DNA of 58,166 bases from Candidatus Uhrbacteria bacterium (GCA_943358395.1 CALRGY010000002.1:1-58166); one strand, 5' to 3'; shown: positions 21,043 through 55,093, counted from the stretch's first letter. Program-made: numbers and translations. The notes: generated from the sequence alone by a model not told the origin.

Positions 21043-21771
21043 TCAAAGGTTGTTTTTTGGAGGAAGCGCGGCACTGTGGGTGAGTGCAAGGTACGCATTT
21101 CGTGGATGATCGGTGCCCCAAATGGCGCTTCCCGCAATAAGAGCGTTTGCCCCTGCATTGATGATATTTTGCATGTTTTCTTGAGTTACTCCGCCATCGA
21201 CTGCGATGGCGAGCGAAGGATGAATGGCGCGAATGCGGCGAATCTTTGCAAGAATCGGCTCACCAAGGAATGCGTGACCAGAATGTCCCGGTTGCACACC
21301 CATTACCAGAATACGATCGGGCAGTTGTGAAAGGACATCGATGACATCGGGTGCGGTTTCTGGGCAGAGGGCAACGCCGGTTTCTAGATCACACGCACGA
21401 ATTGCATCAAGGATCGGCGATAATGGCCTAGAAATCTCCGCATGAACAATCGCCCGAATCGTTTCCGGCACAAGTGCTTTCCACTGTTCGATGATTGGAA
21501 GAGGATTCTGAATCATGCAGTGGAGCTCGATGAATGGAACGTGATCTCTCCCCCATTTATGGGGGAGTAAGGAGGGGGCTGAAGCCGAGAGGGGGCTCTC
21601 GTGAAGAGCGGTCACTGCCGCCGCATCACAAAAACACCTTGCCCCAAACATACTTCCATCAAGAATATCGACGTGCGCTGTCATCCCCGGTTCCCAAAGC
21701 CCAGGGAACATAAGCTTCTCACGAAGCTCTTCTGCGTTTTCCGCAAGGATCGAGGGGAGAATTTCCAGCAT
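21043..21771 (-). CDS. rpe: Ribulose-phosphate 3-epimerase, carrying an in-frame repeat insertion
   Basis: ILPSILA, HVDILDG, LHCMIQNP, VMGVQPGHSGHAF, AVDGG and AGSAIWG motifs. Confidence 0.88.
   Translation of the reverse strand: MLEILPSILAENAEELREKLMFPGLWEPGMTAHVDILDGSMFGARCFCDAAAVTALHESPLSASAPSLLPHKWGRDHVPFIELHCMIQNPLPIIEQWKALVPETIRAIVHAEISRPLSPILDAIRACDLETGVALCPETAPDVIDVLSQLPDRILVMGVQPGHSGHAFLGEPILAKIRRIRAIHPSLAIAVDGGVTQENMQNIINAGANALIAGSAIWGTDHPRNAYLALTHSAALPPKNNL
21546..21598 (+). repeat. G-rich palindromic element (working label GPE) inside rpe, antisense to the gene
   Basis: CTCTCCCCCATTTATGGGGGAGTAAGGAGGGGGCTGAAGCCGAGAGGGGGCTC, translated on the minus strand as ESPLSASAPSLLPHKWGRD. 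Confidence 0.8.
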
Positions 21772-22956: not shown

Positions 22957-23079
22957 AGGACTTTCTCATTTTCGACCAATTTCGGTGCGCAAGGAAGAAT
23001 ATTCGCGAGGTGTACTTCTCGGTACATTGAGCGAATGTTCGACGCAGCAAGCCGAAAATGGGCAAAATGAGGAAGTTCT
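22957..23079. repeat. LHE copy 3, directly upstream of ileS
   Basis: AGGACTTTCTCATTTT...AAAATGAGGAAGTTCT ends. Body CGGTGCGCAAGGAAG...GTGTAC-TTCTCG-GTACAT. Confidence 0.85.
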
Positions 23080-23105
23080 CACAATTTATCGAGCTCGGCG
23101 TTCCG

Positions 23106-26057
23106 ATGCTCCACTTGCCTGATATGCAATCACATTCTGAACAGGAAAAAGCGGTTTTGGATTCTTGGGAGAAGAATAAAATTTTTGAACGATCGGTTGA
23201 GGAACGATCGAAAGAGAAGCGATATACGTTTTACGATGGGCCGCCGTTTGCCACGGGTTTGCCGCATTATGGGAGCATTTTGCCGTCGGTGATTAAAGAT
23301 GTTGTTCCACGATATTGGACGATGAAGGGCTATAGGGTGGAGCGGGTGTGGGGTTGGGATTGTCATGGAGTGCCGATTGAAAACATGATCGAGCAGGAAT
23401 TGGGATTAAAAGGCGGGAAGAAGGGTATTGAAGAGCTGGGAATTGATAAGTTTAATGCGGCGTGCCGTGCGGCGATTTTGCGGTTCGATAAGGAATGGGA
23501 GGTGATTATCAAACGTGTTGGCCGTTGGGTCGACTTCAAGCATTCGTATAAAACCATGGACAACACGTTCATGGAAAGTGTGTGGTGGGGATTTAAGCAG
23601 CTGCACGAAAAGAATCTTGTCCGTGAAGGCAAACGAGTTATTTTGTACTGTCCGCGCTGCGCAACTCCACTCAGCAACTTCGAAATCGCGATGGACAACT
23701 CGTACAAGGACGTTGAAGACAATTCGTTGTACGTGAAATTTAAGCGAAAAGATGCAGAGAATGAATATTTCTTGGCGTGGACGACGACGCCATGGACGCT
23801 CCCCGGCAACGTCGGCTTAGCTGTCGACCGCGATGCGGAATACGTGAAAGTGCAGACCGGCGATGAGTTCGTCTGGATGGCGAAGCAGTGTATGGAGAGA
23901 ACCCTCCCCCTTTTCAAGGGGGAGTCGGAGGGGGTCTCGAATGGCGTCGTGATTGAATCCCTCCCTGGATCCTCTCTCCTCAACATCGAATACGAGCCCC
24001 TCTATTCCTACATGCCCACCGAGGGCAAAAAGGCGCATTACATTCTGCCGGCAACGTTCGTTTCCCTCGACGATGGATCCGGAATTGTTCATACGGCTGC
24101 CGTGTTCGGTGAAGACGACTATAAGCTTGCGCAAGAGTTCGATCTTCCATGTGTTCCCACTCTCGATGACCAAGGTCGGTTCCTTGATATCGTTGAGCCA
24201 CTCAAGGGTGTGTTCTACAAAAAAGGTGAGCAGTGGGTGATCGACGATCTGACGAGCAGGAATTTGGTGTGGTCGTCGACGAAGTTTATGCACTCGTATC
24301 CGATGTGCTATCGATGCTCGACTCCGTTGTATTACAACGCGGTGCCAGCATGGTTCATCGATGTGCAGTCGTTGAAACCGGAGTTGATTGCGCAGAACGA
24401 AAACATTAATTGGTACCCAGAGCACCTCAAGAAAGGGAGATTCGGCAAAGGTCTTGAAACCGCACCAGATTGGAACATTTCTCGCTCTCGGTACTGGGGA
24501 ACGCCAATGCCAGTATGGGTGGCAGAAGATGGCACACGCCGTGTTCTCGGTTCATTCGATGAGTTGAAGACATGGGCGGTTGATCCTTCGTGTGTTGAAA
24601 CGCTCACCGATTATCATCGTGAGTTTATTGACCCCATCGAGGTATGGGTTGACGATGCAAAAACGAAGAAGGGCAAGCGCATTCCAGAAGTGTTTGATTG
24701 CTGGGTGGAGTCTGGCTCTATGCCATTCGCCGCAATCCACGCGCCGTTTGAGAATAAGGAACAGTTCGATCACGCATTCCCAGCGCAATTCATCACGGAG
24801 TACATTGCGCAGACCAGAGCATGGTTTTATGTCATGCATGTCATGTCGGTAGCGCTCTTCGGCAAGAATTCGTATGAAAACGTGTTGACGACGGGAACGA
24901 TTCTCGCTGCGGACGGATCGAAGATGAGTAAGTCAAAGAAGAATTATCCTGATCCCACGATTCTTATCGAAAAGCACAGCGCGGATGCTCTTCGATTCTA
25001 TTTGATGTCTCAGCCGTTGGTGAATGGAGAAAATCTGTTGTTCAACGAATCCGGGGTCGAGGAGGTCTCCAAAAAGTTCATCACCATCATGAAGAACGTG
25101 GTGTCGTTCTACGGTTTGTACAAGGAGCACGATGATGGTCGTGAACCATCGAACATGCACGTGCTCGACCAATGGATCACGGCACGGATCGATGAGACGC
25201 TTGAGGCGGAGACCGCCGCCATCGAACGCTACGACCTTTCCGATGCCGCCCGATCCCTCCAATCCTTCGTCACCGATCTTTCCACATGGTACGTTCGCCG
25301 TTCGCGTGATCGCGTGAAGAATAGTGGCGACGATCGCGCTGAAGCGCTTGCGACTCTCCGATCGACCCTCACCACCTTCTCAAAGATGCTCGCGCCATTC
25401 ATGCCGTTCCTAGCAGAAATGATGTACCGCGATGTTGCCGGTGCCTCCGAATCCGATTCGGTTCACCTTCAGTCGTGGCCTCAGACGAGTACGCGACCTC
25501 TCCCCCTTTATAAGGGGGAGTCGGAGGGGGTGGGGAGTAAGGGGGAGGTCGTGACAGCGATGGGCGAAGCCCGCGCCATCGTTTCCCGCGTGATGGAGGC
25601 TCGCGACAATGCTGGCCGTTCCGTGAAACAAGCGCTTGGATCGATGAAAATTACGACGCCGACCGGAGCTATCGAACCAGGAATTCTCGAAGTGATTCTT
25701 GATGAGGTTAATGTAAAGACTGCAACAGTGGTGAAGGGTGCTGAGCTTGCGGTCGATGTCGATACTACACTTACCCCAGCATTGATCCGCGAAGGCATGG
25801 CACGTGAGGTAACTCGTCGGGTGAATGGGATGCGTAAAGAGGCGGGGATGACCATTGCGGATCGCATTGTCCTCCGCGTGTTCTCGGTAAGCGACGAGGT
25901 CAAGATGATGTTTGAGGAGTACAAAGATTCTCTTCAAGCCGACACCCTCTCGTCATCGGTCGCATGGGACCAATGCGACCCATCAGATTCTTCCGCAATC
26001 ACTCAATCCTTCCGCGTTGCAGAACAGGACATCACGATTGGATTTATACGAGCATAG
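23106..26057 (+). CDS. ileS: Isoleucyl-tRNA synthetase (type 2-like), with two in-frame repeat insertions
   Basis: PPFATGLPHYGS (HIGH region), WDCHG.P.E and KMSKSKKN. Start moved to ATG 23106 because the track start 23058 lies inside LHE copy 3. Confidence 0.92.
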   Translation: MLHLPDMQSHSEQEKAVLDSWEKNKIFERSVEERSKEKRYTFYDGPPFATGLPHYGSILPSVIKDVVPRYWTMKGYRVERVWGWDCHGVPIENMIEQELGLKGGKKGIEELGIDKFNAACRAAILRFDKEWEVIIKRVGRWVDFKHSYKTMDNTFMESVWWGFKQLHEKNLVREGKRVILYCPRCATPLSNFEIAMDNSYKDVEDNSLYVKFKRKDAENEYFLAWTTTPWTLPGNVGLAVDRDAEYVKVQTGDEFVWMAKQCMERTLPLFKGESEGVSNGVVIESLPGSSLLNIEYEPLYSYMPTEGKKAHYILPATFVSLDDGSGIVHTAAVFGEDDYKLAQEFDLPCVPTLDDQGRFLDIVEPLKGVFYKKGEQWVIDDLTSRNLVWSSTKFMHSYPMCYRCSTPLYYNAVPAWFIDVQSLKPELIAQNENINWYPEHLKKGRFGKGLETAPDWNISRSRYWGTPMPVWVAEDGTRRVLGSFDELKTWAVDPSCVETLTDYHREFIDPIEVWVDDAKTKKGKRIPEVFDCWVESGSMPFAAIHAPFENKEQFDHAFPAQFITEYIAQTRAWFYVMHVMSVALFGKNSYENVLTTGTILAADGSKMSKSKKNYPDPTILIEKHSADALRFYLMSQPLVNGENLLFNESGVEEVSKKFITIMKNVVSFYGLYKEHDDGREPSNMHVLDQWITARIDETLEAETAAIERYDLSDAARSLQSFVTDLSTWYVRRSRDRVKNSGDDRAEALATLRSTLTTFSKMLAPFMPFLAEMMYRDVAGASESDSVHLQSWPQTSTRPLPLYKGESEGVGSKGEVVTAMGEARAIVSRVMEARDNAGRSVKQALGSMKITTPTGAIEPGILEVILDEVNVKTATVVKGAELAVDVDTTLTPALIREGMAREVTRRVNGMRKEAGMTIADRIVLRVFSVSDEVKMMFEEYKDSLQADTLSSSVAWDQCDPSDSSAITQSFRVAEQDITIGFIRA
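23894..23925 (+). repeat. GPE copy inside ileS (first)
   Basis: CTCCCCCTTTTCAAGGGGGAGTCGGAGGGGGT, translated LPLFKGESEGV. Confidence 0.8.
25498..25547 (+). repeat. GPE copy inside ileS (second)
   Basis: CTCTCCCCCTTTATAAGGGGGAGTCGGAGGGGGTGGGGAGTAAGGGGGAG, translated PLPLYKGESEGVGSKGE. Confidence 0.8.
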
Positions 26058-26060
26058 AAT

Positions 26061-26133
26061 GGCTAATATTAGCCAAATACTATTGACAAAACCGTGATTT
26101 TGTGGCATAGTAACGCCATGGACAGTCGTATCT
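26061..26133 (+). promoter_or_regulatory. Conserved regulatory cassette copy 1: 14-nt palindrome + sigma70-like promoter + conserved transcript start
   Basis: GGCTAATATTAGCC (26061-26074), TTGACA (26083-26088), 17-nt spacer, TGgCATAGT (-10 at 26106-26111), then ACGCCATGGACAGTCGTATCT. Near-identical block at 28729-28801. Confidence 0.6.
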
Positions 26134-26156
26134 GCCGAAGAAAAGAAGGTTCATGA
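26118..26156 (+). other. Candidate leaderless mini-ORF MDSRICRRKEGS*
   Basis: The ATG lies 7 nt after the predicted -10. The first five codons (MDSRI) are identical in the second cassette. Purely predicted. Confidence 0.25.
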
Positions 26157-26161
26157 AAATC

Positions 26162-26189
26162 AAAACTCCCGCCCTTCGGCGGGAGTTTT
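26162..26189 (+). terminator. Intrinsic terminator/attenuator hairpin upstream of speH
   Basis: AAAACTCCCGCC-CTTC-GGCGGGAGTTTT, identical at 28960-28987. It lies 20 nt before the speH ATG. Confidence 0.7.
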
Positions 26190-26208
26190 GTTGTAGAATA
26201 TATGTCTT

Positions 26209-26553
26209 ATGCGGGGAATCCATGTGTTCGGGGAGCTTTCTGGATGCGACTCTTCGACATTGATCGATATCGATAGCGTTTTGCGTCGTGTGCGGGAGAT
26301 CATCGATTCGGCGGGGCTGTCTCGAGTTTCAGAAGCGATGCACGTTTTTCCAAATGGTGGGTATACATTTGTGATTTGCCTTGCAGAGTCGCATCTTGCG
26401 GTGCATACGTGGGTCGACGAGCGATTGGTAACGTTAGATGTTTTTATGTGCAACGTCACGAAAGATCATTCGGCGGATGCGCAGAGAGTGTTCGACGAGG
26501 TTTCAGTAGTATTTCATCCAGAACACCGTCATGTGCAAACGGTGGAGCGTTAA
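26209..26553 (+). CDS. speH: S-adenosylmethionine decarboxylase proenzyme (small SpeH type)
   Basis: 114 aa. LAESHLAVHTW matches the ES/H self-cleavage and HTWPE-like motif. Confidence 0.85.
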   Translation: MRGIHVFGELSGCDSSTLIDIDSVLRRVREIIDSAGLSRVSEAMHVFPNGGYTFVICLAESHLAVHTWVDERLVTLDVFMCNVTKDHSADAQRVFDEVSVVFHPEHRHVQTVER

Positions 26554-28073
26554 CGCTGAAACCATCGTTGCCAACCCTCATCGTAGAGACGGACGAGAAT
26601 TTGATTATCGAGTGTGTTGATTGCGGTATCGATCTTTTGCATATCGGTATCGAGCACAAAGAGCGTTGGGAGAATGTCTGGCGTGAGGTATTTTGTCGGC
26701 ACATCAATGGTGAACGAAGGCAGAGTGGTGTTGGACGCAAGAACAAACCCCCATGGGCCAAATGACGGAACATTCACGGTATACGGCAGAACAGTGCCGA
26801 AGACTGCATTGAGTGTATTGGCAATGCACCAATAGGCAGAACGCGAAAAGTACGGAGACGTTGCTTGCGTCACAACGGTGCCACCAACGGCAAGATGTTG
26901 CGCAACGAGTCTGTAGAATTCCGTAGTGTAGAGCTTTCCGAGCGCGATGTCGTTCGGGTCAGGGAGATCGATGAGAATCACGGAGTATCGTTCATTCGTT
27001 TGCTCAAGATACGTTTGTGCATCTTGGTTGACGACGGTAACTTTTGGATTTTGAAGCGCATGCTCGTTTAATGCGACGATAAGGGGGTGGGCTGTTCCCA
27101 GTGCGGTCATTGCAGGATCGAGATCGACAAGAGTTACACGTCGAACTTCTGAATAGTTGAGAACTTCTCGTGCCGCTAAACCGTCACCGCCACCAAGAAT
27201 AAGAACGGATTCGCGTGTTGCCGCGGCGCTCATCGGAATATGAACGAGCGCTTCATGGTAGCGATATTCGTCGATACTGCTGAATTGTAAACTTCCATTG
27301 AGGAATAATCGAAGATCGTCGTGGAATTGTGTGAGAACGATATTTTGATAGAGCGATTGTTTGGAATAGAGGATTTCATCGCTATAGAGCTTTTGTTCAA
27401 AGAACGATACTGCCGGTGCGGTAAAAGAAACACCGATGAAAAGAAAAACGGCAGCAAAGAGCGTTGCGATGCCAAGGCGTTTGCCGTGAGCGATGTGTGA
27501 GCGGAACGCAAAGAGGGTTATTGCCGCGGCGATAATGTTGATGATGCCAATGGCAAAGGCGGATCGCATCAATCCAAGTTGCGGTAACAAGAAGAGTGCA
27601 AAGGCAACTGACGCAAGAAGTGATCCAAGATAATCGGCAGTAAACACGTGGGCGACGGCATGGGAAAGCTTTTGATGTTGCTCAACGATGCGGGTCATGA
27701 TGGGAATTTCAAAGCCGATCAGTGTACCAATCGCGCCGATGGAGAGTAGGACGCAGAAGTAAAAATAGGGCGTAAATGTGAACGCCGCATAAAGAAAGAG
27801 CGTTGAAAATCCACCAACGATACTCAAGAGAATTTCAATGAAAATAAATTTTTCCAGCAAACGGTGCTCGATGCGCTTTGAGAGCAGTGATCCGAATCCC
27901 ATGAAGGAAAGAAAGAGCCCGATGGTGAGCGAAAAATGCGTAATGCTATTCCCAAGAAAATACGACGAAACACTGCCCATGAGCAGTTCATAGGCGAGTG
28001 CGCACATGGCAACGAGAAATGTCGATGCAAGCAATGCGCCAACCTTCCGGTACGACGACGTTTCGGTTGGCAT
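26550..28073 (-). CDS. speE: Spermidine synthase-like aminopropyltransferase with N-terminal multi-TM domain
   Basis: About 7 TM helices, then VLILGGGDGLAAREVL, LVDLDP and ILIDLPDP motifs. Confidence 0.85.
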   Translation of the reverse strand: MPTETSSYRKVGALLASTFLVAMCALAYELLMGSVSSYFLGNSITHFSLTIGLFLSFMGFGSLLSKRIEHRLLEKFIFIEILLSIVGGFSTLFLYAAFTFTPYFYFCVLLSIGAIGTLIGFEIPIMTRIVEQHQKLSHAVAHVFTADYLGSLLASVAFALFLLPQLGLMRSAFAIGIINIIAAAITLFAFRSHIAHGKRLGIATLFAAVFLFIGVSFTAPAVSFFEQKLYSDEILYSKQSLYQNIVLTQFHDDLRLFLNGSLQFSSIDEYRYHEALVHIPMSAAATRESVLILGGGDGLAAREVLNYSEVRRVTLVDLDPAMTALGTAHPLIVALNEHALQNPKVTVVNQDAQTYLEQTNERYSVILIDLPDPNDIALGKLYTTEFYRLVAQHLAVGGTVVTQATSPYFSRSAYWCIANTLNAVFGTVLPYTVNVPSFGPWGFVLASNTTLPSFTIDVPTKYLTPDILPTLFVLDTDMQKIDTAINTLDNQILVRLYDEGWQRWFQR

Positions 28074-28079
28074 AGAGCG

Positions 28080-28292
28080 TTATCCGTGAATGGCAGCGGC
28101 GATAATGATGCATGTGCCAAGAATGCCGCTCCCAACCACAATCGCAAGGGCGGTGTTTTGATCCTTCGCGAGCTGTTTGCCTAAATGACCAGGCGTCATC
28201 ATGTCCATCACAAAGAACGATACTAATGCTAACGCGAGACCAATGGCACCAAAGAGCACAGATTCAAGGACACTGATCCAAAGAAGGTCCAT
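28080..28292 (-). CDS. DUF350 small membrane protein
   Basis: 70 aa, two to three TM helices. Classic neighbour of membrane-type SpeE. Confidence 0.7.
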   Translation of the reverse strand: MDLLWISVLESVLFGAIGLALALVSFFVMDMMTPGHLGKQLAKDQNTALAIVVGSGILGTCIIIAAAIHG

Positions 28293-28301
28293 ATAAAGGT
28301 T

Positions 28302-28453
28302 TAGGACTTTCTCATTTTAGGATAGTTTCGATGAAGATCGAGGAAAATTCGTAAGACGTACTTCATGGTACGTTGAACGATTTTCCGATGATCTGACCCC
28401 GCCGTTCGCGAACAGCGGGGTGAGTCGAAAATAGACAAAATGAGGAAGGACTA
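28302..28453. repeat. LHE copy 4 (variant II with nested GC hairpin), intercistronic
   Basis: TAGGACTTTCTCATTTT...AAAATGAGGAAGGACTA. Body CGATGAAGATCGAGGAAAATTCG-TAAG-ACGTAC-TTCATG-GTACGT. Nested CCCCGCCGTTCGCGAACAGCGGGG. Confidence 0.85.
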
Positions 28454-28456
28454 AGA

Positions 28457-28675
28457 TTATTTTCCAACGTCGGTTCCTCCGCCCGTTGTACTGCGTGAAT
28501 TAAAAATGCTGCGTAGCCCTCGGCGTGACGACGAAGATGTGCACGGAACGGTGGTGACCGTTCCATCTTCTGCGGTGGTGGTACAAGGTTGCCGATCGCT
28601 CCACATCCATGACCCTATGATGGCTGCGCCACCAAGACCAAGCACAGCAAGAAGAGTTTTCACATTGAATGGCAT
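28457..28675 (-). CDS. Small membrane protein (hypothetical)
   Basis: 72 aa from MPFNVKTLLAVLGLGGAAIIGSWMW with one TM helix. First gene of the DUF350-speE string. Confidence 0.45.
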   Translation of the reverse strand: MPFNVKTLLAVLGLGGAAIIGSWMWSDRQPCTTTAEDGTVTTVPCTSSSSRRGLRSIFNSRSTTGGGTDVGK

Positions 28676-28728
28676 ATGCAGGAAAAGTATACCGTACAAT
28701 TTTCCTTCATGTTGAATAGTATTTATTT

Positions 28729-28803
28729 GGCTAATATTAGCCGAATACTATTGACAAAAGTCCATTTTTATGGCATAGTAACGCCATGGACAGTCGTATC
28801 TAG
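28729..28803 (+). promoter_or_regulatory. Conserved regulatory cassette copy 2 (palindrome, -35/-10, mini-ORF MDSRI*)
   Basis: GGCTAATATTAGCC (28729-28742), TTGACA (28751-28756), 17-nt spacer, CATAGT (28774-28779), ATG 28786, TAG 28801-28803. Confidence 0.6.
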
Positions 28804-28804
28804 T

Positions 28805-28941
28805 CGGGCTTTCGCCTTTCGCCTTTGGTCTCTTTTCGAATCAGCTCATCGGAAACGTCTTCAACGTACCAAGAAGTACGTCTCAGACGATTTCCTCGAT
28901 CTTCATCGAAAATAGCCTCAAATGCGGAACCCCTATCACGC
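28805..28941. repeat. LHE copy 5 (degenerate ends), inserted in the leader of cassette copy 2
   Basis: GGTCTCTTTTCGAATCAGCTCATCGGAAACGTCTTCA-ACGTAC-CAAGAA-GTACGT-CTCAGACGATTTCCTCGATCTTCATCGAAAATAGCC. Confidence 0.75.
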
Positions 28942-28959
28942 ATACACATCGAGATCACC

Positions 28960-28987
28960 AAAACTCCCGCCCTTCGGCGGGAGTTTT
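28960..28987 (+). terminator. Intrinsic terminator/attenuator hairpin, second identical copy
   Basis: AAAACTCCCGCC-CTTC-GGCGGGAGTTTT, 15 nt before ATG 29002. Confidence 0.7.
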
Positions 28988-29001
28988 GGTACACTAGAGC
29001 C

Positions 29002-29853
29002 ATGTCTCTTGATTCACTGACGAGCTTGATTATTTCTCCACGGAACGACGTTGAGTCGATGACGATTGTTGCGCTTGCGGAGGCATTGCATATTCCGTGC
29101 ATTGTTTCGGCACAGCCACATGGGGCAACGCTGGATGTTGAGCCTGGATTGATTGATCGTATTCGGGAGGCGAATCCGGTGGCGCACGACATCGTGATTG
29201 TTGAAATGCCCAGCATTGCAAAGGAAGATGCGCTGCGTGAGCTGGGGTTTGATGTGCATATCGTCGACCATCATCGGTACGAAACGCTCGATAGAATGCA
29301 GAAGGAAAGCTCGTTGGAGCAGGTGCGAGCACTTTTTGACATGAACGATGCAGCGGTTGCTGCTGCGGGATTTGATCCAGTGTTGATTCGTGGTGTGGGG
29401 CTCATCGATCGTGGATTTGTGTGGGAATTAGCAAAAGAGCATGTACCCGAGGCTGATCGCAAGCGGATGATTGCATATTATCGTGCGCAAAATACGATAC
29501 TCGATCCAGATCAGATACAGGGAGAGCGTGCCGCAAAGAAGGCGTGGGATGCGCGAAGCGTGATCGAAGGTGTGATCGTCGTTTCTGTCACCGATCCCGC
29601 ATTGCGGATTCGTGAATCCCTTTCATTTCTTGCCGCAGAAGCATTCGCGGAGGCTCCGGCAACGATCATTCATCAGCCTGGGCGTATGGCATATATGCAA
29701 GAAACATCTACGGCATCGGTATTGCAGCGTACCTTTGGCGGATTCACATTTGGACAAGATTTGTGTTGGGGAAAACCGGTGGATGCGCAGGGGAATATTC
29801 CAAGCGTCGAAGAAATTCTTGCCGCGCACCACTTGGCACTGATGACGCGATGA
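29002..29853 (+). CDS. Hypothetical protein, possibly DHH-type phosphoesterase-like
   Basis: 283 aa from MSLDSLTSL. PRNDVES...IVIVEMPS...HIVDHH spacing resembles DHH motifs I-III (weak). The track start 28825 reads through LHE copy 5. Confidence 0.55.
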   Translation: MSLDSLTSLIISPRNDVESMTIVALAEALHIPCIVSAQPHGATLDVEPGLIDRIREANPVAHDIVIVEMPSIAKEDALRELGFDVHIVDHHRYETLDRMQKESSLEQVRALFDMNDAAVAAAGFDPVLIRGVGLIDRGFVWELAKEHVPEADRKRMIAYYRAQNTILDPDQIQGERAAKKAWDARSVIEGVIVVSVTDPALRIRESLSFLAAEAFAEAPATIIHQPGRMAYMQETSTASVLQRTFGGFTFGQDLCWGKPVDAQGNIPSVEEILAAHHLALMTR

Positions 29854-30557
29854 CTATGGACGACACCCACGATGACGTTTTTCTTCTTGCGCAAAAGGAC
29901 GCTGAACGCATTATGGCGGAAAAGCCGAGTGTATTCGAGGCGTTTTTCGCAATGATCGCGATTGCGCCTTCAGGGAAGGACGTGATTGCGCCACAATATT
30001 CCGATCGTCGGAATGAGATTCTTCGGCGATTTGGCTTAGAGAATGCGTATGAAAAATTTCTCATCGAGCTGTGTTGGAGCTATCCAGACAGTACAGATTT
30101 TTTCTCCACGCCGGGGAATGAGGCGGAATTTGCCACATTTCCAGCGCGAGCAGGGAAAGCGGGGCTGAATGTTGGGCTATTTCTCGATGCCTTACTTGCC
30201 GCTGTCCTCATCGATGATCGGAAAAAGCATCCAGGCACACTCGAAGCGTTTCATCGTTTTGTTGCAGCAGAATACGTCGTTATGCCCGAGCGCTTTGCGG
30301 CACGACAGGCGCAGCAGGCGCATGCGCGAAAACTTCGGATGAAGGCGATTTTGCGGGAATGCGGTTTAGCGCCAGAGATGCTATTCGAGCGCCTCAATAT
30401 TGGTTTAGGACCGGAACGTGGTGTGGTTATGGAGGGCGTGTACGAAATGATTCGTGGAGAATCCGTGGGTGCACAATTTGGTATTCATACCGAATATCTT
30501 CAGGAATGTGCACGAAATGCCGCGGGTCAGCTTTCGAAGGAAGGGCTTTCCGTGTAA
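29850..30557 (+). CDS. Hypothetical protein
   Basis: 235 aa. ATGA start/stop overlap with the upstream gene. No family recognised. Confidence 0.5.
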   Translation: MTMDDTHDDVFLLAQKDAERIMAEKPSVFEAFFAMIAIAPSGKDVIAPQYSDRRNEILRRFGLENAYEKFLIELCWSYPDSTDFFSTPGNEAEFATFPARAGKAGLNVGLFLDALLAAVLIDDRKKHPGTLEAFHRFVAAEYVVMPERFAARQAQQAHARKLRMKAILRECGLAPEMLFERLNIGLGPERGVVMEGVYEMIRGESVGAQFGIHTEYLQECARNAAGQLSKEGLSV

Positions 30558-31126: not shown

Positions 31127-32154
31127 GCGTCGAATATACCCAAGAACAGTGGAATGCCCTTGTCGCACCATTCGCGCCCATCAGTGGTGCATTTTTGCAG
31201 AGCTTTGCCTGGGGAGAGTTTCAGCAATCGCAGGGAAGGGAAGTGAAGAGAATAGTCGTGAACGTGAACCCTCTTTTATTTATGGGGGAGTTAGGAGGGG
31301 GCGGGGGACCGAGGGGGGCTGAGCCGCAGGGGACTCGTACCGCGATCGCTCAAGCGGTGAAGTTGAAGGCACCTCTCCGCATGACGTACTGGCTGGTGCC
31401 GAAGGGCCCAATTGGCGACGCGTCATCGACGGCGATGCGAGATAGCGTGGTCGCTGCACTCGGAGCTAGCACCGATTATATCCGCACCGAATCCGCAGAA
31501 CGCCTGCCACGATCGATCGCCACGAAAGACATGCACCCCCACACCACACGTCTTATCGACCTTACGCAGGGATACGATGCAGTTTTTGGTGATTTTCATA
31601 CTCGCGTGCGATACAACACGAGGCTTGCAAAGAAGAAGGGCGTGATCTGCGAATTCGTTAGCCTCGACCGTTTTGAGGAATTCGTTGAACTCATGAAGCA
31701 AACCGCCGAGCGAGACGAGTTTTCGATTCACGAGATCGCGTATTACCGATCGATGATCGAAAGGCTCGGCGCCGAGCCATCGTGCCACGCAAAGCTGGCC
31801 ATTGCATCGAAGGATGGCACGCCCCTTGCTGCCACGCTCACCATCGACGCATTCGGTACAAGAACGTATCTGCACGGCGCATCCGGAAATATGATGCGCG
31901 AGCTGAAAGCAACCCACGTTCTGCAAGACTTCGTCATCCACGATGCCATCACTTCCGGCATGATCCGTTACGATTTCTGGGGCATCGCCCCCGAAGGATC
32001 CTCATCAAAACATCCCTGGGCCGGCATCACCGAATTCAAAAAAGCCTTCGGAGGATACGTCTATGCCACCGCCGGAACATTCGATATTCCAGTGAATATT
32101 CCAAAGTACATCATCTATCGTGTAGCAAAAGCGGTGAGGGGAGTGGTGAGGTGA
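31123..32154 (+). CDS. FemAB-family peptidyltransferase (lipid II amino-acid transferase, FemX/MurM-like) with in-frame repeat insertion
   Basis: FLQS..WGEFQ, R.N.R.A.K.G and YLHGAS...R...A.H.LQ...I patterns. Confidence 0.8.
   Translation: MSVEYTQEQWNALVAPFAPISGAFLQSFAWGEFQQSQGREVKRIVVNVNPLLFMGELGGGGGPRGAEPQGTRTAIAQAVKLKAPLRMTYWLVPKGPIGDASSTAMRDSVVAALGASTDYIRTESAERLPRSIATKDMHPHTTRLIDLTQGYDAVFGDFHTRVRYNTRLAKKKGVICEFVSLDRFEEFVELMKQTAERDEFSIHEIAYYRSMIERLGAEPSCHAKLAIASKDGTPLAATLTIDAFGTRTYLHGASGNMMRELKATHVLQDFVIHDAITSGMIRYDFWGIAPEGSSSKHPWAGITEFKKAFGGYVYATAGTFDIPVNIPKYIIYRVAKAVRGVVR
31270..31331 (+). repeat. GPE copy inside the femX-like gene
   Basis: CTCTTTTATTTATGGGGGAGTTAGGAGGGGGCGGGGGACCGAGGGGGGCTGAGCCGCAGGGG, translated PLLFMGELGGGGGPRGAEPQG. 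Confidence 0.75.
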
Positions 32155-32156
32155 TG

Positions 32157-32280
32157 AGGGGTTTTCGAATTTTAGGCTATTTTCGGTGCGCAAGGAGCAA
32201 AGTTCGTGAGACGTACTTAACGGTACGTTGAACGAATTTGTGACGAAGTAAGCCGAAAAGAGACAAAATGGGAAAACCCT
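32157..32280. repeat. LHE copy 6 between convergent genes
   Basis: AGGGGTTTTCGAATTTT...AAAATGGGAAAACCCT ends. The body is nearly identical to copies at 39384 and 55094. Confidence 0.85.
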
Positions 32281-32287
32281 AAATGAG

Positions 32288-33553
32288 TTACGGCAGCAAA
32301 CTAAACTTTTCCTGATGAATCCTGTGATGCGGCACTTTGAGAGCTAAAAGTTGAGTACGGATGGCGGCAACCATGCCTTGGGGGCCGCAGAGGAAGATGT
32401 CGGTGTTTTTGGGATCGAGGTGGCGTAAGGCGGCTTCGGCGGTGAGGAAGCCTTGCTCTTTGCTTTTCCACAACACCACGTTGAGATTCGGTTTTTGTGC
32501 ACGCATGCGGGCAATATCGTCGGCAACGGCGTTCTCTGTTTCGTCGGAAATAGCATAGAACAGAGTGGCGGAGTATTCGCTGGGGAGGGATTCCGCGAAG
32601 GCAAGAAACGGGGTGATGCCAATACCGCCAGCAATCCAGCACTGCGTTTTTCCGCCGGCGTTGTACGTAAAGCTTCCGTACGGCCCTTCCACCATTGCTT
32701 CGTCACCGATAACAATATTTTGGAGGGTATTCGTGAAGTCGCCGAGTTTTTTCGCCACAAAACGAATAGAGCCGTCGGCACTAGACCCGGCGATGGTGAA
32801 TGGATGCTCTTCAGCCTTCACGCCGTTGCTCATGTACGTGACGTAGGCAAACTGCCCCGGGCGAAGATCGAAGCCCTGGTTTTTTGGCGTTAATGTTACG
32901 TCAACGAATTTTTCGTTTACCACGCGAACGTTGGTAACGACATACGGTGTTCGATGCACAAAAAGCTTATGAAACAGCACACGGTACACAATAGCGAGCA
33001 CACCAAGTCCCAGGAAGAGCACAAAAAGGATGCGGAGCGCGGGGACGGATTGAATGCCGCCAGAAATGAAAATGCCATGGAGTGCGCCAAGAAGGAACGC
33101 GAGGGCAAGGTATCGGTGCACTTTTTTCCAAATATGGTACGGCAGGCGAATGTAATATGTGCACACAATGCAGAACGCCATGAGAATCAGCCCTAGAACG
33201 CCAAGGGTTTTAATGATGTCACCCACGGGAAGTAAGAATAGCGCAGCATCTTTGGGGGAAAATTGCGCAATCGGCCACACAAGAAAGAGGGGATGGAGGA
33301 GAAGCGCGATGAGTGCGCCGGTGCCGATGAGCTGATGCGCCCGATACGACTGCCCAAGGCTGCCGAAGATTTTTTCTTGCACCGGCAAGCGAACGGCGAG
33401 GAGTAGCGCGAGGGTAAAAGCGGCAAAGCCAATCACGCCTAATGTGCTACCAATGAAGTTCATCGAAAGCGTTGGCGACGTTGCACTGAGCCAGAGGGCT
33501 AAGGGAAGGGTGAGAAAGAGCGTGACGGGAATGGTGCCGGTGGGGATGCGCAT
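32288..33553 (-). CDS. Ferric-reductase-like transmembrane protein with FAD/NAD(P)-binding (FNR-like) domain
   Basis: Six TM helices with conserved His residues, then HPFTIAGS and GGIGITPF motifs. Confidence 0.75.
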   Translation of the reverse strand: MRIPTGTIPVTLFLTLPLALWLSATSPTLSMNFIGSTLGVIGFAAFTLALLLAVRLPVQEKIFGSLGQSYRAHQLIGTGALIALLLHPLFLVWPIAQFSPKDAALFLLPVGDIIKTLGVLGLILMAFCIVCTYYIRLPYHIWKKVHRYLALAFLLGALHGIFISGGIQSVPALRILFVLFLGLGVLAIVYRVLFHKLFVHRTPYVVTNVRVVNEKFVDVTLTPKNQGFDLRPGQFAYVTYMSNGVKAEEHPFTIAGSSADGSIRFVAKKLGDFTNTLQNIVIGDEAMVEGPYGSFTYNAGGKTQCWIAGGIGITPFLAFAESLPSEYSATLFYAISDETENAVADDIARMRAQKPNLNVVLWKSKEQGFLTAEAALRHLDPKNTDIFLCGPQGMVAAIRTQLLALKVPHHRIHQEKFSLLP

Positions 33554-34783: not shown

Positions 34784-37323
34784 AACACATTCAGCACATC
34801 ACTCCCATGTATGACGACGCTGTACCAGAGCGTTTTTTGAGTGCAGCAGCACAGAGCGATGAAAAAAAGCTCCTCATTCACCATGGTACCGGGAACCCGT
34901 CGCCGTATATCGTGAAGCTTTCTCGAGGCACCGATGCACCATCGACCGCGGGGACGGCAGATGCAATCCAGGCGCTTGCTGCAAGCCTCATTATCGATGG
35001 TGACGATGATAGTGGCACCATCGAAATGGAACATGAAGACCTTGGTATAGATTTTGCAGATATTTCCAGTCAGTTGCGTGAAAGAGACGTTGCGTATGGT
35101 GTGCGGATGATTCCTCAAGAAAAATCATCGGCATCCATTGAATTTCCACGACGTCCCGTTTCCCTTGATGACGCATTGGCGGCGTATGTCGATCCAGCGA
35201 TTTCGTTGGAGGCATTCGTTCCGATCACATCGGTCATGGAAGAGGTGCCTCTGGAACAGATTGCACAAGAGCAGCGCACGCCCAACACCGTTGCTCCCGA
35301 TTCTTCGTTGCGGCGCGTGATGCGTTTTGAATGGGGCTTTTTCCATCATTTGCCAACGCGCGCCTTGGGCGCATTCGTCCTTTTATCGTTTATCGTGGTG
35401 CTTCCCCTTCATGCCATGCAGGTGTTTTCTGGAACCGCTCATCAGGTGAATGCGGTGAAAGATGTTGGGTTTGCAGCATTGGATGATGTTTCACGGGCGA
35501 CAGATGCGCTTGCCGCAAAAGATTTTTCTGCCGCAGGAGATGATTTTTCTGCTGCAGCGGAAAAGTTTGCATTTGCGCAGGAATCGTTGGGCGGTTTACA
35601 TGCTGGCGTGGTGGCACTGGTGAATAGCATTCCGCAAACGGACAGAACCTATGAATCCGTGCGTGGATTAGTCACTGCAGGCCAAGAGCTTTCGCAAACA
35701 GCGTCTATCATGAGTGAAGCAATGCAGGGGATTCCGTCGCAGTCGTCTACAGATGTTGTGACAAAGTTGAATTTGCTCGGTGCGTATATTGAAAATGCAT
35801 TGCCGCATGCCTTGGCAGCAGAAGCGGCGCTGGCAAAGGTGCGTACAAGCGTGGTGCCGGCAGAGTACACTGCAACTATCGCGCGACTGCAGGCAGATGC
35901 GCCGATGGTTGCAGCATCCATGCAGGAATTTGTACGGTTTATTCATACCCTTACGTTTGTACTGGGGGGCAATAGCACCATGCGGTACTTGGCGCTGTTT
36001 CAAAACAATACGGAGCTGCGCCCCACGGGTGGATTTGTGGGGAGCTTCGCAGAGATCAGTATGAATAACGGCGCGATTGCTGCAATGCGCCTGCCAGGTG
36101 GCGGCACGTACGATACACAGGGGCAGCTAGATACTTTTGTTGCTGCACCAAGGCCGTTGCAGCTTATTAACCCCCGATGGGAGTTCCAGGACGGAAATTG
36201 GTTCCCAGATTTTCCTACGTCGGCAAAAAAGATGCAGTGGTTTTATGAGCATGCTGGTGGCCCCACCACAGACGGCGTTGTGGCAGTGAACGCCACGTTT
36301 GTCGAAAAGCTTCTTGAGGTGATTGGCCCTATTGAAATGCCAGAATATGGCGTAACCCTCAATGCGGAGAATTTTGTATTTACCACAGAAAAAGCTGTAG
36401 AAATTGATGCCGACAAAACCAAGAACACGCCAAAGGCATTTTTAGGAGACCTTGTGCCGCGGGTGATTGAAAAAATAAAGGGAGCAGATGCACCAACATT
36501 CATGAAGATTCTGCTCTTGATTGAGCGAGGGCTTGCAGAAAAAGACATTCAGCTTTCGTTCCGTGACAATGACGCGCAAAAATTGATTGCAGATTTGGGT
36601 TTTGACGGTGCCGTGCGCCAAACCGATGGAGATTACCTCATGGTCGTGAATACCAACGTTGGCGGAGGAAAGACAGATGCAGTGATTGATCAGCAGGTAG
36701 ACGTTGTAGTAGACATTGCGGAAACGGGGACTATCGATCACGCGTTGACGCTCACGAAAACGCATCGCGGCATGGCAAATGCGGTGTTTACTGGAAAAAA
36801 TAACGTTGATTATGTGCGGTTTTATGTTCCAGAGGGCAGTGTATTACTTTCTGCGGATGGTTTTGAACCACCGCCAGAATCGCTCTTTGAATCATCGAGC
36901 GTCCCCTTGGGTGTTGATGACGATTTGTCTGTCGTGATGTCTGAAGAATCGCGCGATGCGCTTTTGGGAATAGATACGTGGAACGAATTTGGAAAAACAG
37001 TGTTTGGTGGGTGGATGCAAACAGCTCCAGGGGAAACGCAGGTGGTGCAATTGTCGTATCGCATTCCGCAGGTGCTTTTTCGTGACGAGGGCAGTACATC
37101 GGTGTTTGCACGTGCGCGCAATGCACTGGGGCTTGGTACGCACGATGGATATTCCCTTTTTGTGCAAAAACAATCTGGCGTGGTGTCGCGCGACACCACG
37201 GTACGTGTATCCGTTCCAAGCACGATGCATACCGCATGGACGAATGTTACAGGCGCAGACACGAATATAGTGACGTTTCAGAATACTCATGATGTTTTTT
37301 CCGGATGGTTATTGAAAAAATAA
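34780..37323 (+). CDS. DUF4012-domain membrane protein
   Basis: MRYLALFQNNTELRPTGGFVGSFAEI is the signature DUF4012 block. GTGA overlap with the upstream stop. Confidence 0.7.
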   Translation: MKHIQHITPMYDDAVPERFLSAAAQSDEKKLLIHHGTGNPSPYIVKLSRGTDAPSTAGTADAIQALAASLIIDGDDDSGTIEMEHEDLGIDFADISSQLRERDVAYGVRMIPQEKSSASIEFPRRPVSLDDALAAYVDPAISLEAFVPITSVMEEVPLEQIAQEQRTPNTVAPDSSLRRVMRFEWGFFHHLPTRALGAFVLLSFIVVLPLHAMQVFSGTAHQVNAVKDVGFAALDDVSRATDALAAKDFSAAGDDFSAAAEKFAFAQESLGGLHAGVVALVNSIPQTDRTYESVRGLVTAGQELSQTASIMSEAMQGIPSQSSTDVVTKLNLLGAYIENALPHALAAEAALAKVRTSVVPAEYTATIARLQADAPMVAASMQEFVRFIHTLTFVLGGNSTMRYLALFQNNTELRPTGGFVGSFAEISMNNGAIAAMRLPGGGTYDTQGQLDTFVAAPRPLQLINPRWEFQDGNWFPDFPTSAKKMQWFYEHAGGPTTDGVVAVNATFVEKLLEVIGPIEMPEYGVTLNAENFVFTTEKAVEIDADKTKNTPKAFLGDLVPRVIEKIKGADAPTFMKILLLIERGLAEKDIQLSFRDNDAQKLIADLGFDGAVRQTDGDYLMVVNTNVGGGKTDAVIDQQVDVVVDIAETGTIDHALTLTKTHRGMANAVFTGKNNVDYVRFYVPEGSVLLSADGFEPPPESLFESSSVPLGVDDDLSVVMSEESRDALLGIDTWNEFGKTVFGGWMQTAPGETQVVQLSYRIPQVLFRDEGSTSVFARARNALGLGTHDGYSLFVQKQSGVVSRDTTVRVSVPSTMHTAWTNVTGADTNIVTFQNTHDVFSGWLLKK

Positions 37324-37326
37324 ATG

Positions 37327-37505
37327 TAGGACTTCCTCATTTTGTCTATTTTCGACTCACCCCGCTGTTCGCGAACGGCGGGGTCAGATCATCGGAAAAT
37401 CGTTCACCCCGCTTCTCGCGAGAGGCGGGGTCAACGTACCATGAAGTACGTCTCACGAATTTTCCTCGATCTTCATCGAAACTAGCCTAAAATGAGAAAG
37501 TCCTA
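37327..37505. repeat. LHE copy 7 (variant II, two nested GC hairpins), fills the whole intergenic gap
   Basis: TAGGACTTCCTCATTTT...AAAATGAGAAAGTCCTA. Nested CCCCGCTGTTCGCGAACGGCGGGG (37360-37383) and CCCCGCTTCTCGCGAGAGGCGGGG (37407-37430). Confidence 0.88.
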
Positions 37506-37511
37506 AAACAT

Positions 37512-39329: not shown

Positions 39330-39383
39330 TCCTCTATTGATACGGTGGCTATATATAGCAAAAGAAAACGTAAGTAATTTAAT

Positions 39384-39544
39384 TAGGACTTTCTCATTTT
39401 AGGCTATTTTCGGTGCGCAAGGAGCAAAGTTCGTGAGATGTACTTAACGGTACGTTGAACGAATTTGCGACGCAGCAAGGTATGAAGTAAGCGCTTCGCT
39501 TTACTTCATACCAAGCCGAAAAGAGACAAAATGAGAAAGTCCTA
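39384..39544. repeat. LHE copy 8 (variant I with a nested 15-bp hairpin)
   Basis: Perfect 16-nt ends AGGACTTTCTCATTTT / AAAATGAGAAAGTCCT. Nested GGTATGAAGTAAGCG-CTT-CGCTTTACTTCATACC. Confidence 0.88.
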
Positions 39545-40699
39545 TTAATATTTCTGTGTGGCGTGGTGCAGCGCATCGAGGATAACTGCTCCCGTTTTCT
39601 TCCATGAAAAGTGCTGCGCGCGTTCGGTGCCTCGTTTTCGAAGGAGGGCACGGAGCGGGGTGCCGTGGGGTTCCTCGATGATTTGGTGGAGAGCATTGGC
39701 GATATCGGTGATGTTGAGGGGGTCGATGAGGAGTGCGGCGTTGCCGGTGACATCGGGTAGTGATGATGAAATGCTGGTGATGACGGGCGTGCCGCATGCC
39801 ATCGCTTCAAGAACCGGAAGCCCGAAGCCTTCGTAGAACGACGGGAAGAGAAGCGTTGTTGCGCCGCGAAGCAATGCGGCTTTATGTTTTTCGGGGACAT
39901 AGGAAAGCTCGCGGATGTCTGCGGAATATGGGGACGTACGAATGGCGGCATCGAGTGCTCGCGTTTTCCATCCTGTGGTGCCGGCAAGAACCAGGGGGAG
40001 CGTTTCGGTGCTGCGGGATCGGAATTGGGTATAGGCGAGCACCACGCTTTCTAAGTTTTTGCGTGGTTCTCGTGTAGCAAGCGCAAGAAGATAGGGGTGA
40101 TTCAAATCGTACGCGGCGCGATATGAGCGGTCTTGTGACTGTTCTCGGGCAGCATAGACGGCGTGGTCAACGCCAAGAGGTGCAACGGTAATACGTTCTT
40201 CAGGGATTCCGTAAAAGTGTGAAGCATCGTTTTTACTGTGTTCGGAAACAGCAATCACGCGTTTTGCCTGCAGAAATACCTTTTCTTCATTCGTCGCTTT
40301 TGCACGCAGATGATCTTTCCACGTGAAGCATTCTGGTGCCGCGCGAAGTGCGGCATCGTGAAAGAGAACAACGTATGGCAGTGCGGTTTTGCATACATGA
40401 GCATGGGGAAAGAGCCATGCGTCTGGCAGGGTAGGGAGAAAGCGTTCCATGGTTGGCCCATGGGGAAGCGTCCAGAGTGCGCTGGCAAGTTTGTTGGGAA
40501 GGGAAAGGGGAACAACCGTAATATTCAGCTCTCGAAACACGGGAATGTTCATGAGTGTTTCTTGTGTGCCGGTAGAAAAAAGAACGAAGTGATCGTTGGG
40601 TGATTGATGCGCCATTGCGCGAATAACGGATTCCGTTACAACCCCAACTCCGGTTTTATGTGCAGCCGTGAGCGAACGAATATCAATAGCGATATTCAT
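39545..40699 (-). CDS. Glycosyltransferase family 4
   Basis: YEGFGLPVLEAMACGTPVI.S..SSLP.V motif. Confidence 0.8.
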   Translation of the reverse strand: MNIAIDIRSLTAAHKTGVGVVTESVIRAMAHQSPNDHFVLFSTGTQETLMNIPVFRELNITVVPLSLPNKLASALWTLPHGPTMERFLPTLPDAWLFPHAHVCKTALPYVVLFHDAALRAAPECFTWKDHLRAKATNEEKVFLQAKRVIAVSEHSKNDASHFYGIPEERITVAPLGVDHAVYAAREQSQDRSYRAAYDLNHPYLLALATREPRKNLESVVLAYTQFRSRSTETLPLVLAGTTGWKTRALDAAIRTSPYSADIRELSYVPEKHKAALLRGATTLLFPSFYEGFGLPVLEAMACGTPVITSISSSLPDVTGNAALLIDPLNITDIANALHQIIEEPHGTPLRALLRKRGTERAQHFSWKKTGAVILDALHHATQKY

Positions 40700-43215: not shown

Positions 43216-43238
43216 ATGGGTACAGTGTACATGAATTG

Positions 43239-43297
43239 TAGGACTTCTCATTTGAGGCGAGTTTCGATGAAGATCATAGACCAAAGGAGAAGTCCTA
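43239..43297. repeat. LHE copy 9 (59-nt internally deleted derivative)
   Basis: TAGGACTTCTCATTTGAGGCGAGTTTCGATGAAGATC|ATAGACCAAAGGAGAAGTCCTA. Confidence 0.7.
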
Positions 43298-46955: not shown

Positions 46956-46983
46956 AAGCGAGGAGATGAATCTCGATTGTGAA

Positions 46984-49901: not shown

Positions 49902-49940
49902 CAAGATCACGACAAGGGGCGTGATATAATTCTTCACAAT

Positions 49941-55089: not shown

Positions 55090-55093
55090 CTTT

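Follow-up and report, generated by a model that had tools for sequence, protein, structure and literature searches.

The region analysed here is an intergenic cassette that occurs twice in a 58,166-nt stretch of DNA from a Candidatus Uhrbacteria bacterium (GCA_943358395.1, CALRGY010000002.1:1-58166), which we call the window. Copy 1 follows ileS, and copy 2 lies ahead of a two-gene operon whose members we call gene A and gene B. A preliminary description, made from the window sequence alone, saw in the cassette the control region of a small polyamine regulon. Each copy has a palindrome, a promoter, a conserved segment starting with ATG and a terminator hairpin; in the list below, P1 is a hairpin that the conserved segment helps to form in relatives, and mini-ORF is the short open reading frame (ORF) that starts at the ATG.

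26061..26074, no strand assigned: copy 1 palindrome GGCTAATATTAGCC, 8 bp upstream of the -35 element, beginning 3 nt after the ileS stop codon
26083..26111, + strand: copy 1 promoter, TTGACA, 17-nt spacer, TGgCATAGT (extended -10), from the promoter scan
26118..26133, + strand: copy 1 predicted +1 and conserved 5' RNA segment ATGGACAGTCGTATCT; +1 is the A of the ATG, 7 nt after the -10
26134..26161, + strand: copy 1 linker, which keeps AAGGTTC, a remnant of the 3' arm of P1
26162..26198, + strand: copy 1 terminator, 12-bp stem AAAACTCCCGCC/GGCGGGAGTTTT, loop CTTC, tail TTTTGTTGT, from repeat, fold and terminator scans
28729..28742, no strand assigned: copy 2 palindrome, by sequence match
28751..28779, + strand: copy 2 promoter, from the promoter scan
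28786..28801, + strand: copy 2 predicted +1 and conserved 5' RNA segment, with the mini-ORF MDSRI followed by a stop codon, by sequence match
28960..28987, + strand: copy 2 terminator hairpin, whose tail is only TTTT and overlaps the TG of the extended -10 of gene A

The repeat finder delimits a 74-nt direct repeat at 26060-26133 and 28728-28801, in which 66 of the 74 positions (89%) are identical, and a 30-nt repeat, CAAAACTCCCGCCCTTCGGCGGGAGTTTTG, at 26161-26190 and 28959-28988, identical at 30 of 30. The palindrome GGCTAATATTAGCC, the hairpin and the 22-mer AACGCCATGGACAGTCGTATCT occur exactly twice each in the window even when 2-3 mismatches are allowed, against a chance expectation of 0-0.1. 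Both copies have the form of a sigma-70-type extended -10 promoter (TTGACA, 17 nt, CATAGT with an upstream TG), with a score of 10 out of 12 in the promoter scan, and both have the hairpin and U-run of an intrinsic terminator, copy 2 with the shorter run. The preliminary description of the copies holds up: it had reported a nearly identical block of 73 nt, the same palindrome and promoter architecture in both copies, and an identical hairpin. Two of its details change. From the end of the hairpin to the ATG there are 19 nt in copy 1 (ATG at 26209) and 14 nt in copy 2 (ATG at 29002), instead of 15-20 nt, and the promoter spacer is not the only place where the copies differ: it holds seven of the eight differences within its 17 nt, but the eighth is in the stretch that separates the palindrome from the -35. 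The hypergeometric P value for this distribution is 7.5e-5, with the caveat that six of the differences are adjacent and possibly a single event. A stronger argument than the P value is that spacer and linker have diverged while the palindrome, -35, -10, +1 to +16 and hairpin are identical. Two other features of the window belong here. In copy 2, GTCCAT in the spacer (28763-28768) is the exact reverse complement of ATGGAC at +1 (28786-28791), a 6-bp inverted repeat across the -10 that is not conserved in relatives and is probably due to chance. A weak third "copy" at 56752-56789 is actually the unrelated promoter of a HicB-like gene.

We compared the window with about 15 related Patescibacteria (Candidatus Uhrbacteria) loci, numbered with an L below, which were gathered through homologues of speE, through homologues of gene A, and through one exact-pattern scan of GTDB genomes and one of JGI metagenomes; L005 and L017 are one sequence. 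The window itself is essentially a single 58-kb ENA metagenome contig. The homologues of the transmembrane-spermidine synthase fusion, 68-80% identical and named polyamine aminopropyltransferase, come from Patescibacteria, and the matches of the promoter-pattern scan are metagenome-assembled genomes of Candidatus Uhrbacteria. The architecture of the cassette, which we call the unit, is found in L004, L005/L017, L006, L012, L013, L014, L015, L018, L020, L022, L023, L026 and L033. Its order is the palindrome SGCTAATNTYAGCC, with the conserved form GCTAA-NN-TYAGC, then 7-8 bp, TTGACAAAA, a variable spacer, TGTGGCATAGTAG, 5 nt and ATGG(AC/CA)AGTCGTACCT, followed by a 5-nt loop, AGGTTCGRC, a short linker, a G+C-rich hairpin and a T-run, which in the relatives reads TTTTGGTTTTT in the RNA. 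The aligned sequences show little or no change in the palindrome core, -35, -10 and +1 to +16, but vary in spacer and linker. The -35 and -10 hexamers are invariant in the 11 aligned sequences; L023, which is outside that alignment, alone has CACAGT. In the units that contain no inserted ORF, the promoter, the palindrome and the segment from +1 to +30 are near-invariant amid scrambled spacer, linker and flanks, which we read as purifying selection and not as decay. The comparison thus supports the block as a genuine promoter module under constraint.

The neighbourhood of the unit is also conserved, in the order ileS, unit, gene A, gene B, ruvA, femAB. The exact-pattern scan gives one promoter match per genome in five GTDB genomes, and a covariance model finds no further copies of the unit in 237 kb. 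A generic mobile promoter, the alternative that the preliminary description had named, is rejected by copy number and synteny: there are two copies in the window and a single syntenic copy in relatives, always at the ileS/gene A locus, within the limit that exact-pattern scans are blind to diverged second copies. Putative mobile promoters and duplicated intergenic promoter cassettes are known from the literature, and the window resembles them in having a whole promoter unit at two places before unrelated genes. Unlike them, the unit is single-copy and syntenic in relatives, and it lacks terminal inverted repeats, target duplications and spread to many genes. More distant relatives, with gene A at 43-49% identity, do not have the unit; there gene A starts 1 nt after ileS or stands behind divergent genes. 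In these relatives (L027-L032; for example L027 6856-7599) gene A is followed by a gene for a TrmB-family regulator and then by gene B, all in the compact operon ileS-geneA-trmB-geneB-ruvA-femAB, and this regulator gene is no longer at that place in the clade that carries the cassette. The TrmB-family protein is a candidate for the palindrome binder. In an informal comparison, the palindrome has no convincing match to the consensus sequences of dif, parS, the LexA box and the Fur box.

For the predicted RNA, RNAalifold gives a consensus fold of seven compact homologues with a 7-nt unpaired 5' end, P1 (4+4 bp around a U-U), a 5-nt linker and a 9-bp terminator stem. Four of the nine pairs in the terminator stem are changed on both sides across the seven sequences; these compensatory changes and the U-run support the hairpin as a genuine intrinsic-terminator-like structure. 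One-sided changes in P1 are mostly to G-U, and two sequences break the loop-closing pair to U-U, a pattern that mildly favours an RNA hairpin over a DNA operator. Single sequences fold like the consensus (z = -3.8 to -4.6). The canonical copies score 65-88 bits with the covariance model, copy 1 of the window 29 bits and copy 2 15 bits. The conserved segment of copy 1, whose counterpart in relatives is the 5' tail and 5' arm of P1, opens a non-conserved mini-ORF (MDSRICRRKEGS and a stop codon); in this copy the loop has grown and the 3' arm of P1 has changed in its outer half, and the 5' AUGGAC is predicted to pair with GUUCAU instead. Copy 2 carries a repeat element inside the P1 loop. In the window region, Rfam 15 gives no match at gathering score; at E <= 10, in the window and in the canonical copy L014, it gives only chance matches of the bare hairpin. 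An AUG stands exactly at the predicted +1 in all 15 sequences, and the start is very likely the A of AUGG because the same distance from -10 to ATG is found at ordinary leaderless genes of the clade. Two further ideas about the RNA were tried and rejected. Pairing of the 5' segment with the start of gene A, judged by manual inspection, involves only six of eight positions and is lost in the AUGGCAA variants, and the flanking stem that would make GGUUCGA a mimic of the tRNA T-loop is not conserved.

The features downstream of copy 2 are as follows.

28987..28995, + strand: own extended -10 of gene A, TGgTACACT, 6 nt before the ATG, which implies a leaderless mRNA
29002..29853, + strand: gene A, member of a phosphoesterase family, DHH/DHHA1 fold predicted (AlphaFold 2, AF2, and Foldseek)
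29850..30557, + strand: gene B, an all-alpha protein in a short form (370-390 aa in relatives)

A -10 hexamer lies exactly 6 nt before the ATG of gene A in 11 loci from 10 lineages (the window, L004, L005, L006, L013, L014, L015, L022, L023, L026 and L033). It varies between TATACT, TACAAT and TACACT, usually with an upstream TG. It stays with the gene where 130-500 nt are inserted behind the terminator (L005, L014, L022), and its distance from the terminator varies from 6 to 36 nt and more. Given this leaderless promoter of gene A, the most likely role of the hairpin is to end a short transcript that stands alone, and not to attenuate gene A. Leaderless starts are not special to gene A. Many genes of the window seem leaderless (6042, 29002 and 33647 on the + strand, 19027 on the - strand), with a TGnTAnnnT that ends 6-8 nt before the ATG and no Shine-Dalgarno sequence, and in two unrelated metagenome contigs with the promoter pattern of the unit (L019, L021) ordinary ORFs start at the ATG 7 nt after the -10. 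Sequence comparison supports the use of leaderless mRNAs in this clade. A search of the literature on leaderless genes or non-coding RNAs in Patescibacteria found nothing relevant.

The family of gene A has about 140 proteins, is restricted to Patescibacteria, and has an invariant D89-H90-H91. By sequence it has no match in Pfam, NCBIfam or PDB, and only the fold search answered. The AF2 model has a pLDDT of 93.7, and its top Foldseek match is the NrN SAM-AMP phosphodiesterase 9lqa (E = 9e-11; template-modelling score 0.63/0.70), with archaeal pAp phosphatase, GdpP, NrnA and RecJ among the others (E = 1e-10 to 1e-6 for the top matches). From this model we predict that gene A encodes a DHH/DHHA1 phosphoesterase. 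Gene B has no significant match in Foldseek, Pfam, NCBIfam or PDB. The operon had been described as uncharacterised, and Pfam indeed gives neither gene a family.

The reading that we moderately favour is that the cassette is a self-contained, evolutionarily conserved transcription unit and not a polyamine control region; the best reading of its sequence is a new candidate, absent from Rfam, for a small RNA or a promoter-leader unit that has an operator of its own. A strong sigma-70-type promoter (TTGACA-17-TGgCATAGT) would be preceded, 7-8 bp upstream, by a putative transcription-factor operator, the 12-14-bp palindrome. Transcription would start at the conserved AUGG; the RNA, of about 60-80 nt, would begin with 7 unpaired nt, continue with P1 (4+4 bp) and a short linker, and end at the intrinsic terminator. 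In a subclade of Candidatus Uhrbacteria, the unit is present once per examined locus, between ileS and the gene of the DHH-family phosphoesterase with its leaderless promoter, and in some lineages the promoter-leader module would drive an inserted membrane-protein ORF. In the window, two copies, one after ileS and before speH and the other before gene A, flank the four-gene spe module. They would have arisen by duplication and/or recombination between copies; both are degenerate in P1, and copy 2 carries an inserted repeat element. Among the closest known systems are bacterial small RNA genes that have a regulated promoter and a Rho-independent terminator of their own, for example those of the RybB/OmrA type, with a seed at the 5' end. 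Like these, the unit has its own promoter, an operator-like palindrome, a predicted transcript of about 65 nt, an unpaired conserved 5' end, an internal hairpin, a terminator with a U-run, and a peak of conservation at the promoter and 5' end. Unlike them, it is known from sequence alone, has no target in the scan of the window and no Rfam family, its 5' part leads an mRNA in four lineages, and the window copies are without the internal hairpin.

Several observations weigh against this reading. The window copies do not maintain P1, as their 29 and 15 bits tell, though they keep the promoter and +1 to +16, and this loss fits a function at the DNA level or of the 5' sequence at least as well as a structured small RNA. 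The features expected of a trans-acting small RNA are present in its own promoter, its own terminator and an accessible seed (the 5' AUGGMMA is unpaired in the consensus); the best non-self duplex of the 5' 16 nt in the window, however, reaches -20.7 kcal/mol versus -20.3 for the best shuffled seed, and the window scan finds no target complementarity above shuffled seeds. In four lineages (L006, L012, L018, L020), an ORF led by a Shine-Dalgarno sequence lies between P1 and the terminator, which means that an mRNA can have the conserved 5' part as its leader and that the short RNA is not universal. The ORFs of L006, L012 and L018 encode a membrane or secreted protein and are apparently homologous (L006 versus L018, blastp E = 4e-5; the L012 ORF is cut at the contig end, and its homology is judged from the conserved leader only), and the L020 ORF is unrelated to them. 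Finally, the sequences show the repeat, its conservation and synteny, the covariation of the terminator and a separate promoter signal for gene A; from them we infer the start site, the existence and abundance of the RNA, the efficiency of termination, the binding of a protein to the palindrome and any role of the RNA. The unit is real and looks functional; its function is unproven.

The first alternative is the preliminary model itself, in which speH, the divergent spe operon and the gene A operon form one small polyamine-related regulon, controlled by a palindrome-binding regulator together with an attenuator. We consider it unlikely. The genes concerned, which had been correctly assigned as speH, speE and DUF350, are these.

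26209..26553, + strand: speH-type S-adenosylmethionine decarboxylase (Pfam AdoMet_dc, E = 1.5e-23)
26550..28073, - strand: membrane-anchored spermidine/polyamine aminopropyltransferase, a fusion of a transmembrane part with Spermine_synth (Pfam Spermine_synth, E = 7e-34)
28080..28292, - strand: DUF350 membrane protein (Pfam)
28457..28675, - strand: small protein of 72 aa with one transmembrane segment, first gene of the spe operon, conserved in relatives, with no family match in Pfam
28686..28715, - strand: own promoter of the spe operon, TCAACA-18-TATACT, about 10 nt before the ATG, from the promoter scan; its -10 is kept in palindrome-less relatives

The arrangement in the window does suggest joint control: speH and gene A both stand 14-19 nt behind identical hairpins and identical promoters, the differences between the copies fall outside the functional elements, the palindrome has a divergent promoter on either side, and the short U-run of copy 2 (TTTT) makes read-through plausible. 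The relatives do not bear it out. In five related arrangements, speH has no unit, and the gap upstream of it, in which the covariance model finds none, is 4 nt (to ileS) in L005, 22 nt in L004, about 48 nt in L007/L008 and 11 nt in L011. The -10 region of the spe operon is kept in L007 and L011 (CGGTATACTT and GCGCTATACTT, followed by about 10 nt and the ATG) without the palindrome. The association with polyamine genes is therefore specific to the lineage of the window. The expectation that the cassette is conserved in relatives thus holds for the cassette, in about 15 loci, and fails for its partner, which is gene A and not speH or speE. In the same way, the palindrome does lie between the two divergent promoters that it was thought to serve, but it is kept where ileS is upstream and there is no divergent promoter.

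The regulator and the attenuator of the preliminary model fare no better. In the 292 kb of the window and related loci, GCTAA-NN-TYAGC has no site except next to the promoter of the unit, against a wider palindrome regulon, and a tblastn search finds neither TrmB nor another regulator in the window, in agreement with the earlier remark that no transcription-factor gene is visible there. Promoter-proximal termination control is weakened by the -10 of gene A, kept 6 nt before the ATG in 11 loci despite the insertions of 130-500 nt. An internal AUG of the leaderless type, without a Shine-Dalgarno sequence, is a poor template for translation on a read-through RNA, given the established properties of leaderless mRNAs, and gene A should be poorly translated from such an RNA. 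The unit resembles attenuators, leader-peptide leaders and riboswitch leaders in its promoter-proximal terminator just upstream of a gene and its short 5' ORF. It differs from them in a structure too small and simple for a known aptamer, in a mini-ORF of variable length, and in the leaderless promoter of gene A that travels with the gene past insertions; the RNAalifold consensus fold predicts no conserved antiterminator alternative. Nothing that we found in the window and related loci speaks for a polyamine regulon, a wider palindrome regulon or mobility.

Next, and improbable in our view, is that the unit is a relic, the leftover promoter, first codons or leader, and terminator of a lost cargo gene, with no function beyond residual promoter activity and termination of read-through from ileS, and with the speH copy as a by-product of recombination. 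Cargo ORFs do lie exactly between P1 and the terminator in L006, L012 and L018 and in L020, and L022 has a terminator with a large loop, like L006 and L018, and no ORF. The decay of P1 in the window copies points the same way, and so does the nature of the spacer between ileS and gene A. This spacer is an insertion hot spot, as seen from the spe module, the cargo ORFs, the repeat elements and the GC-rich, foreign-looking ORFs between ileS and the cassette in L004 (8900-9440) and L026 (4840-5800), which are bracketed by a shared motif, …TTCGAT…GATCGAAAACTCTGGGGGCTGTCGAGGTTCCGTACTCGACACGT…. The relic view is opposed by the purifying selection that we see in the promoter, the palindrome and +1 to +30, near-invariant in these surroundings, and by the units without an ORF. 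The latter are found in 10 of the 14 lineages, on both sides of the deepest split and down to about 60% identity of gene A, from which we take the ORF-less state as ancestral and under selection.

There is a slim chance that the unit is a leaderless mini-mRNA, in which the AUG at +1 is translated (MDSRI, MDSRT and similar) and the behaviour of the ribosome modulates the terminator or downstream expression. The MAGDIS upstream ORF of the eukaryotic S-adenosylmethionine decarboxylase (AdoMetDC) is a leader peptide of this arrest or termination-stalling kind, and one window copy stands ahead of a SAM decarboxylase gene. The AUG at the predicted +1 in every sequence, the leaderless geometry that is common in the clade, and the near conservation of the first five codons (M-D/A-S-R-T/I/A) all fit. 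Across the 15 sequences, however, the length of the mini-ORF is not conserved (5, 6, 12, 14, 18, 23 or 35 codons); it runs past the terminator in L013 and L014, and it is in frame with the downstream protein in L018. The conserved codons coincide with the P1 arm, their substitutions keep the RNA pairing, and the exchange of D for A is radical. Nor is speH the ancestral partner. We regard a peptide function of the mini-ORF as unlikely, and the marks of a leader-peptide attenuator are missing in the variable length of the ORF, the lack of an alternative fold and the separate -10 of gene A.

Slimmer still is the chance that the unit is a recombination or integration site acting at the DNA level, the repeats being the footprint of a Campbell-type insertion or the marks of an excisable module. 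It would account for the direct repeats that bracket the spe module in an insertion-prone spacer, and several contigs break inside the unit. The history of the copies bears on it too. Both window copies have derived characters in common (AACGCC before the ATG, GTATCT, an extra base after the palindrome), which points to a duplication, or to gene conversion, that took place in this lineage. L033 is the closest relative (gene A 80% and gene B 91% identical); in its gene A-linked unit, the spacer differs from copy 1 at 1 of 12 positions and from copy 2 at seven, the linker is 71% identical to that of copy 1, the hairpin is identical to both, and the flank after the hairpin matches copy 2; the segment from -6 to +16 differs from both window copies at 8 of 21 positions. 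This mosaic implies recombination between copies, as expected from a crossover in the 30-nt hairpin, and such a crossover would give exactly the order repeat, spe module, repeat. Homologous recombination between any duplicates leaves an equal footprint, however, and none of the loci has an integrase or recombinase close by; the conserved parts have the typical form of promoter and terminator elements, and the spe module of relatives adjoins a single unit. Least probable of all is a bolder proposal, with a milder variant: that a leaderless micro-ORF (MDSR-I/T), whose translation or termination is sensed, for example by polyamines or by 70S initiation capacity, sets read-through of the terminator, which would make the speH copy a bacterial counterpart of the eukaryotic MAGDIS control of AdoMetDC; or, in the milder variant, that the unit is the first dedicated, operator-controlled small RNA family described for Uhrbacteria and the Candidate Phyla Radiation (CPR).

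Two families of repeats shape the surroundings of the unit. Most of the 158 nt between the copy 2 block and its hairpin is a repeat element that the preliminary description had overlooked, and another copy lies within the spe operon.

28805..28934, + strand: repeat element resembling a miniature inverted-repeat transposable element (MITE), at the P1 loop position of copy 2, with terminal inverted repeats that have compensatory changes
28300..28463, - strand: another copy of this multi-copy palindromic repeat, in the spacer between the small protein and DUF350

The family consists of imperfect palindromes of 125-200 nt at no fewer than 11 intergenic sites of the window, about one per 5 kb and in both orientations, including the 23S-5S spacer and the interior of operons. 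Besides the two listed, its copies are at 337-468, 22957-23089, 32159-32291, 37317-37519, 39370-39554, 43236-43275, 49813-49910, 55093-55226 and 56683-56748. It is also present in other Uhrbacteria (L014 at about 305-425, L006 at about 2330-2440, L005 at about 5390). The element has AGGACTTCCTCATTTTG...CAAAATGAGAAAGTCCT as terminal inverted repeats and a core hairpin of the sequence TCAACGTACC-NNGAA-GTACGT; it folds into a long stem with compensatory changes, and some copies have extra inserted hairpins. It is like the ERIC, Correia and RPE-type palindromic repeats in its length, its imperfect palindrome, its terminal inverted repeats, its many intergenic copies, its transcription within operons and the compensatory changes in its stem, but it is a different sequence family; Rfam gives it no match at gathering score and, at E <= 10, only chance matches of hairpins. 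The second family is a short G/C-rich palindromic repeat, CTCTCCCCC-WTTWW-GGGGGAG-TMRGAGGGGG, inserted in frame inside coding sequences (21537-21597, 23897-23942, 25489-25549, 31260-31320 and 46908-47003) and reminiscent of the RPE-type in-frame insertions of Rickettsia. It occurs twice in ileS (...PLFKGESEGV... and ...PLPLYKGESEGVG...) and once in a FemAB-family gene. The first of the ileS insertions is absent from L018 and L005, and L023 has an insertion at that position. The longest ORF of ileS starts at 23058, and in the alignment with relatives the true start falls at about 23124 (MQSHSEQEK); the 60 nt upstream of it overlap a copy of the first repeat element (region 23058-23123). At its other end, ileS in the window is without the separate terminator seen in relatives and runs into copy 1.

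For this locus, the comparison corrects an inference drawn from a single genome: the link to polyamine genes would reflect a lineage-specific duplication and recombination and not a conserved regulon. The locus also adds comparative evidence for leaderless promoters in the clade, whose -10 precedes the ATG by 6 nt, and it allows us to predict that a protein family confined to Patescibacteria consists of DHH phosphoesterases. The regulatory RNAs of Patescibacteria (CPR) and the architecture of their promoters have hardly been charted, and the locus offers a precisely delimited, conserved unit of promoter, operator, short transcript and terminator that is directly testable.

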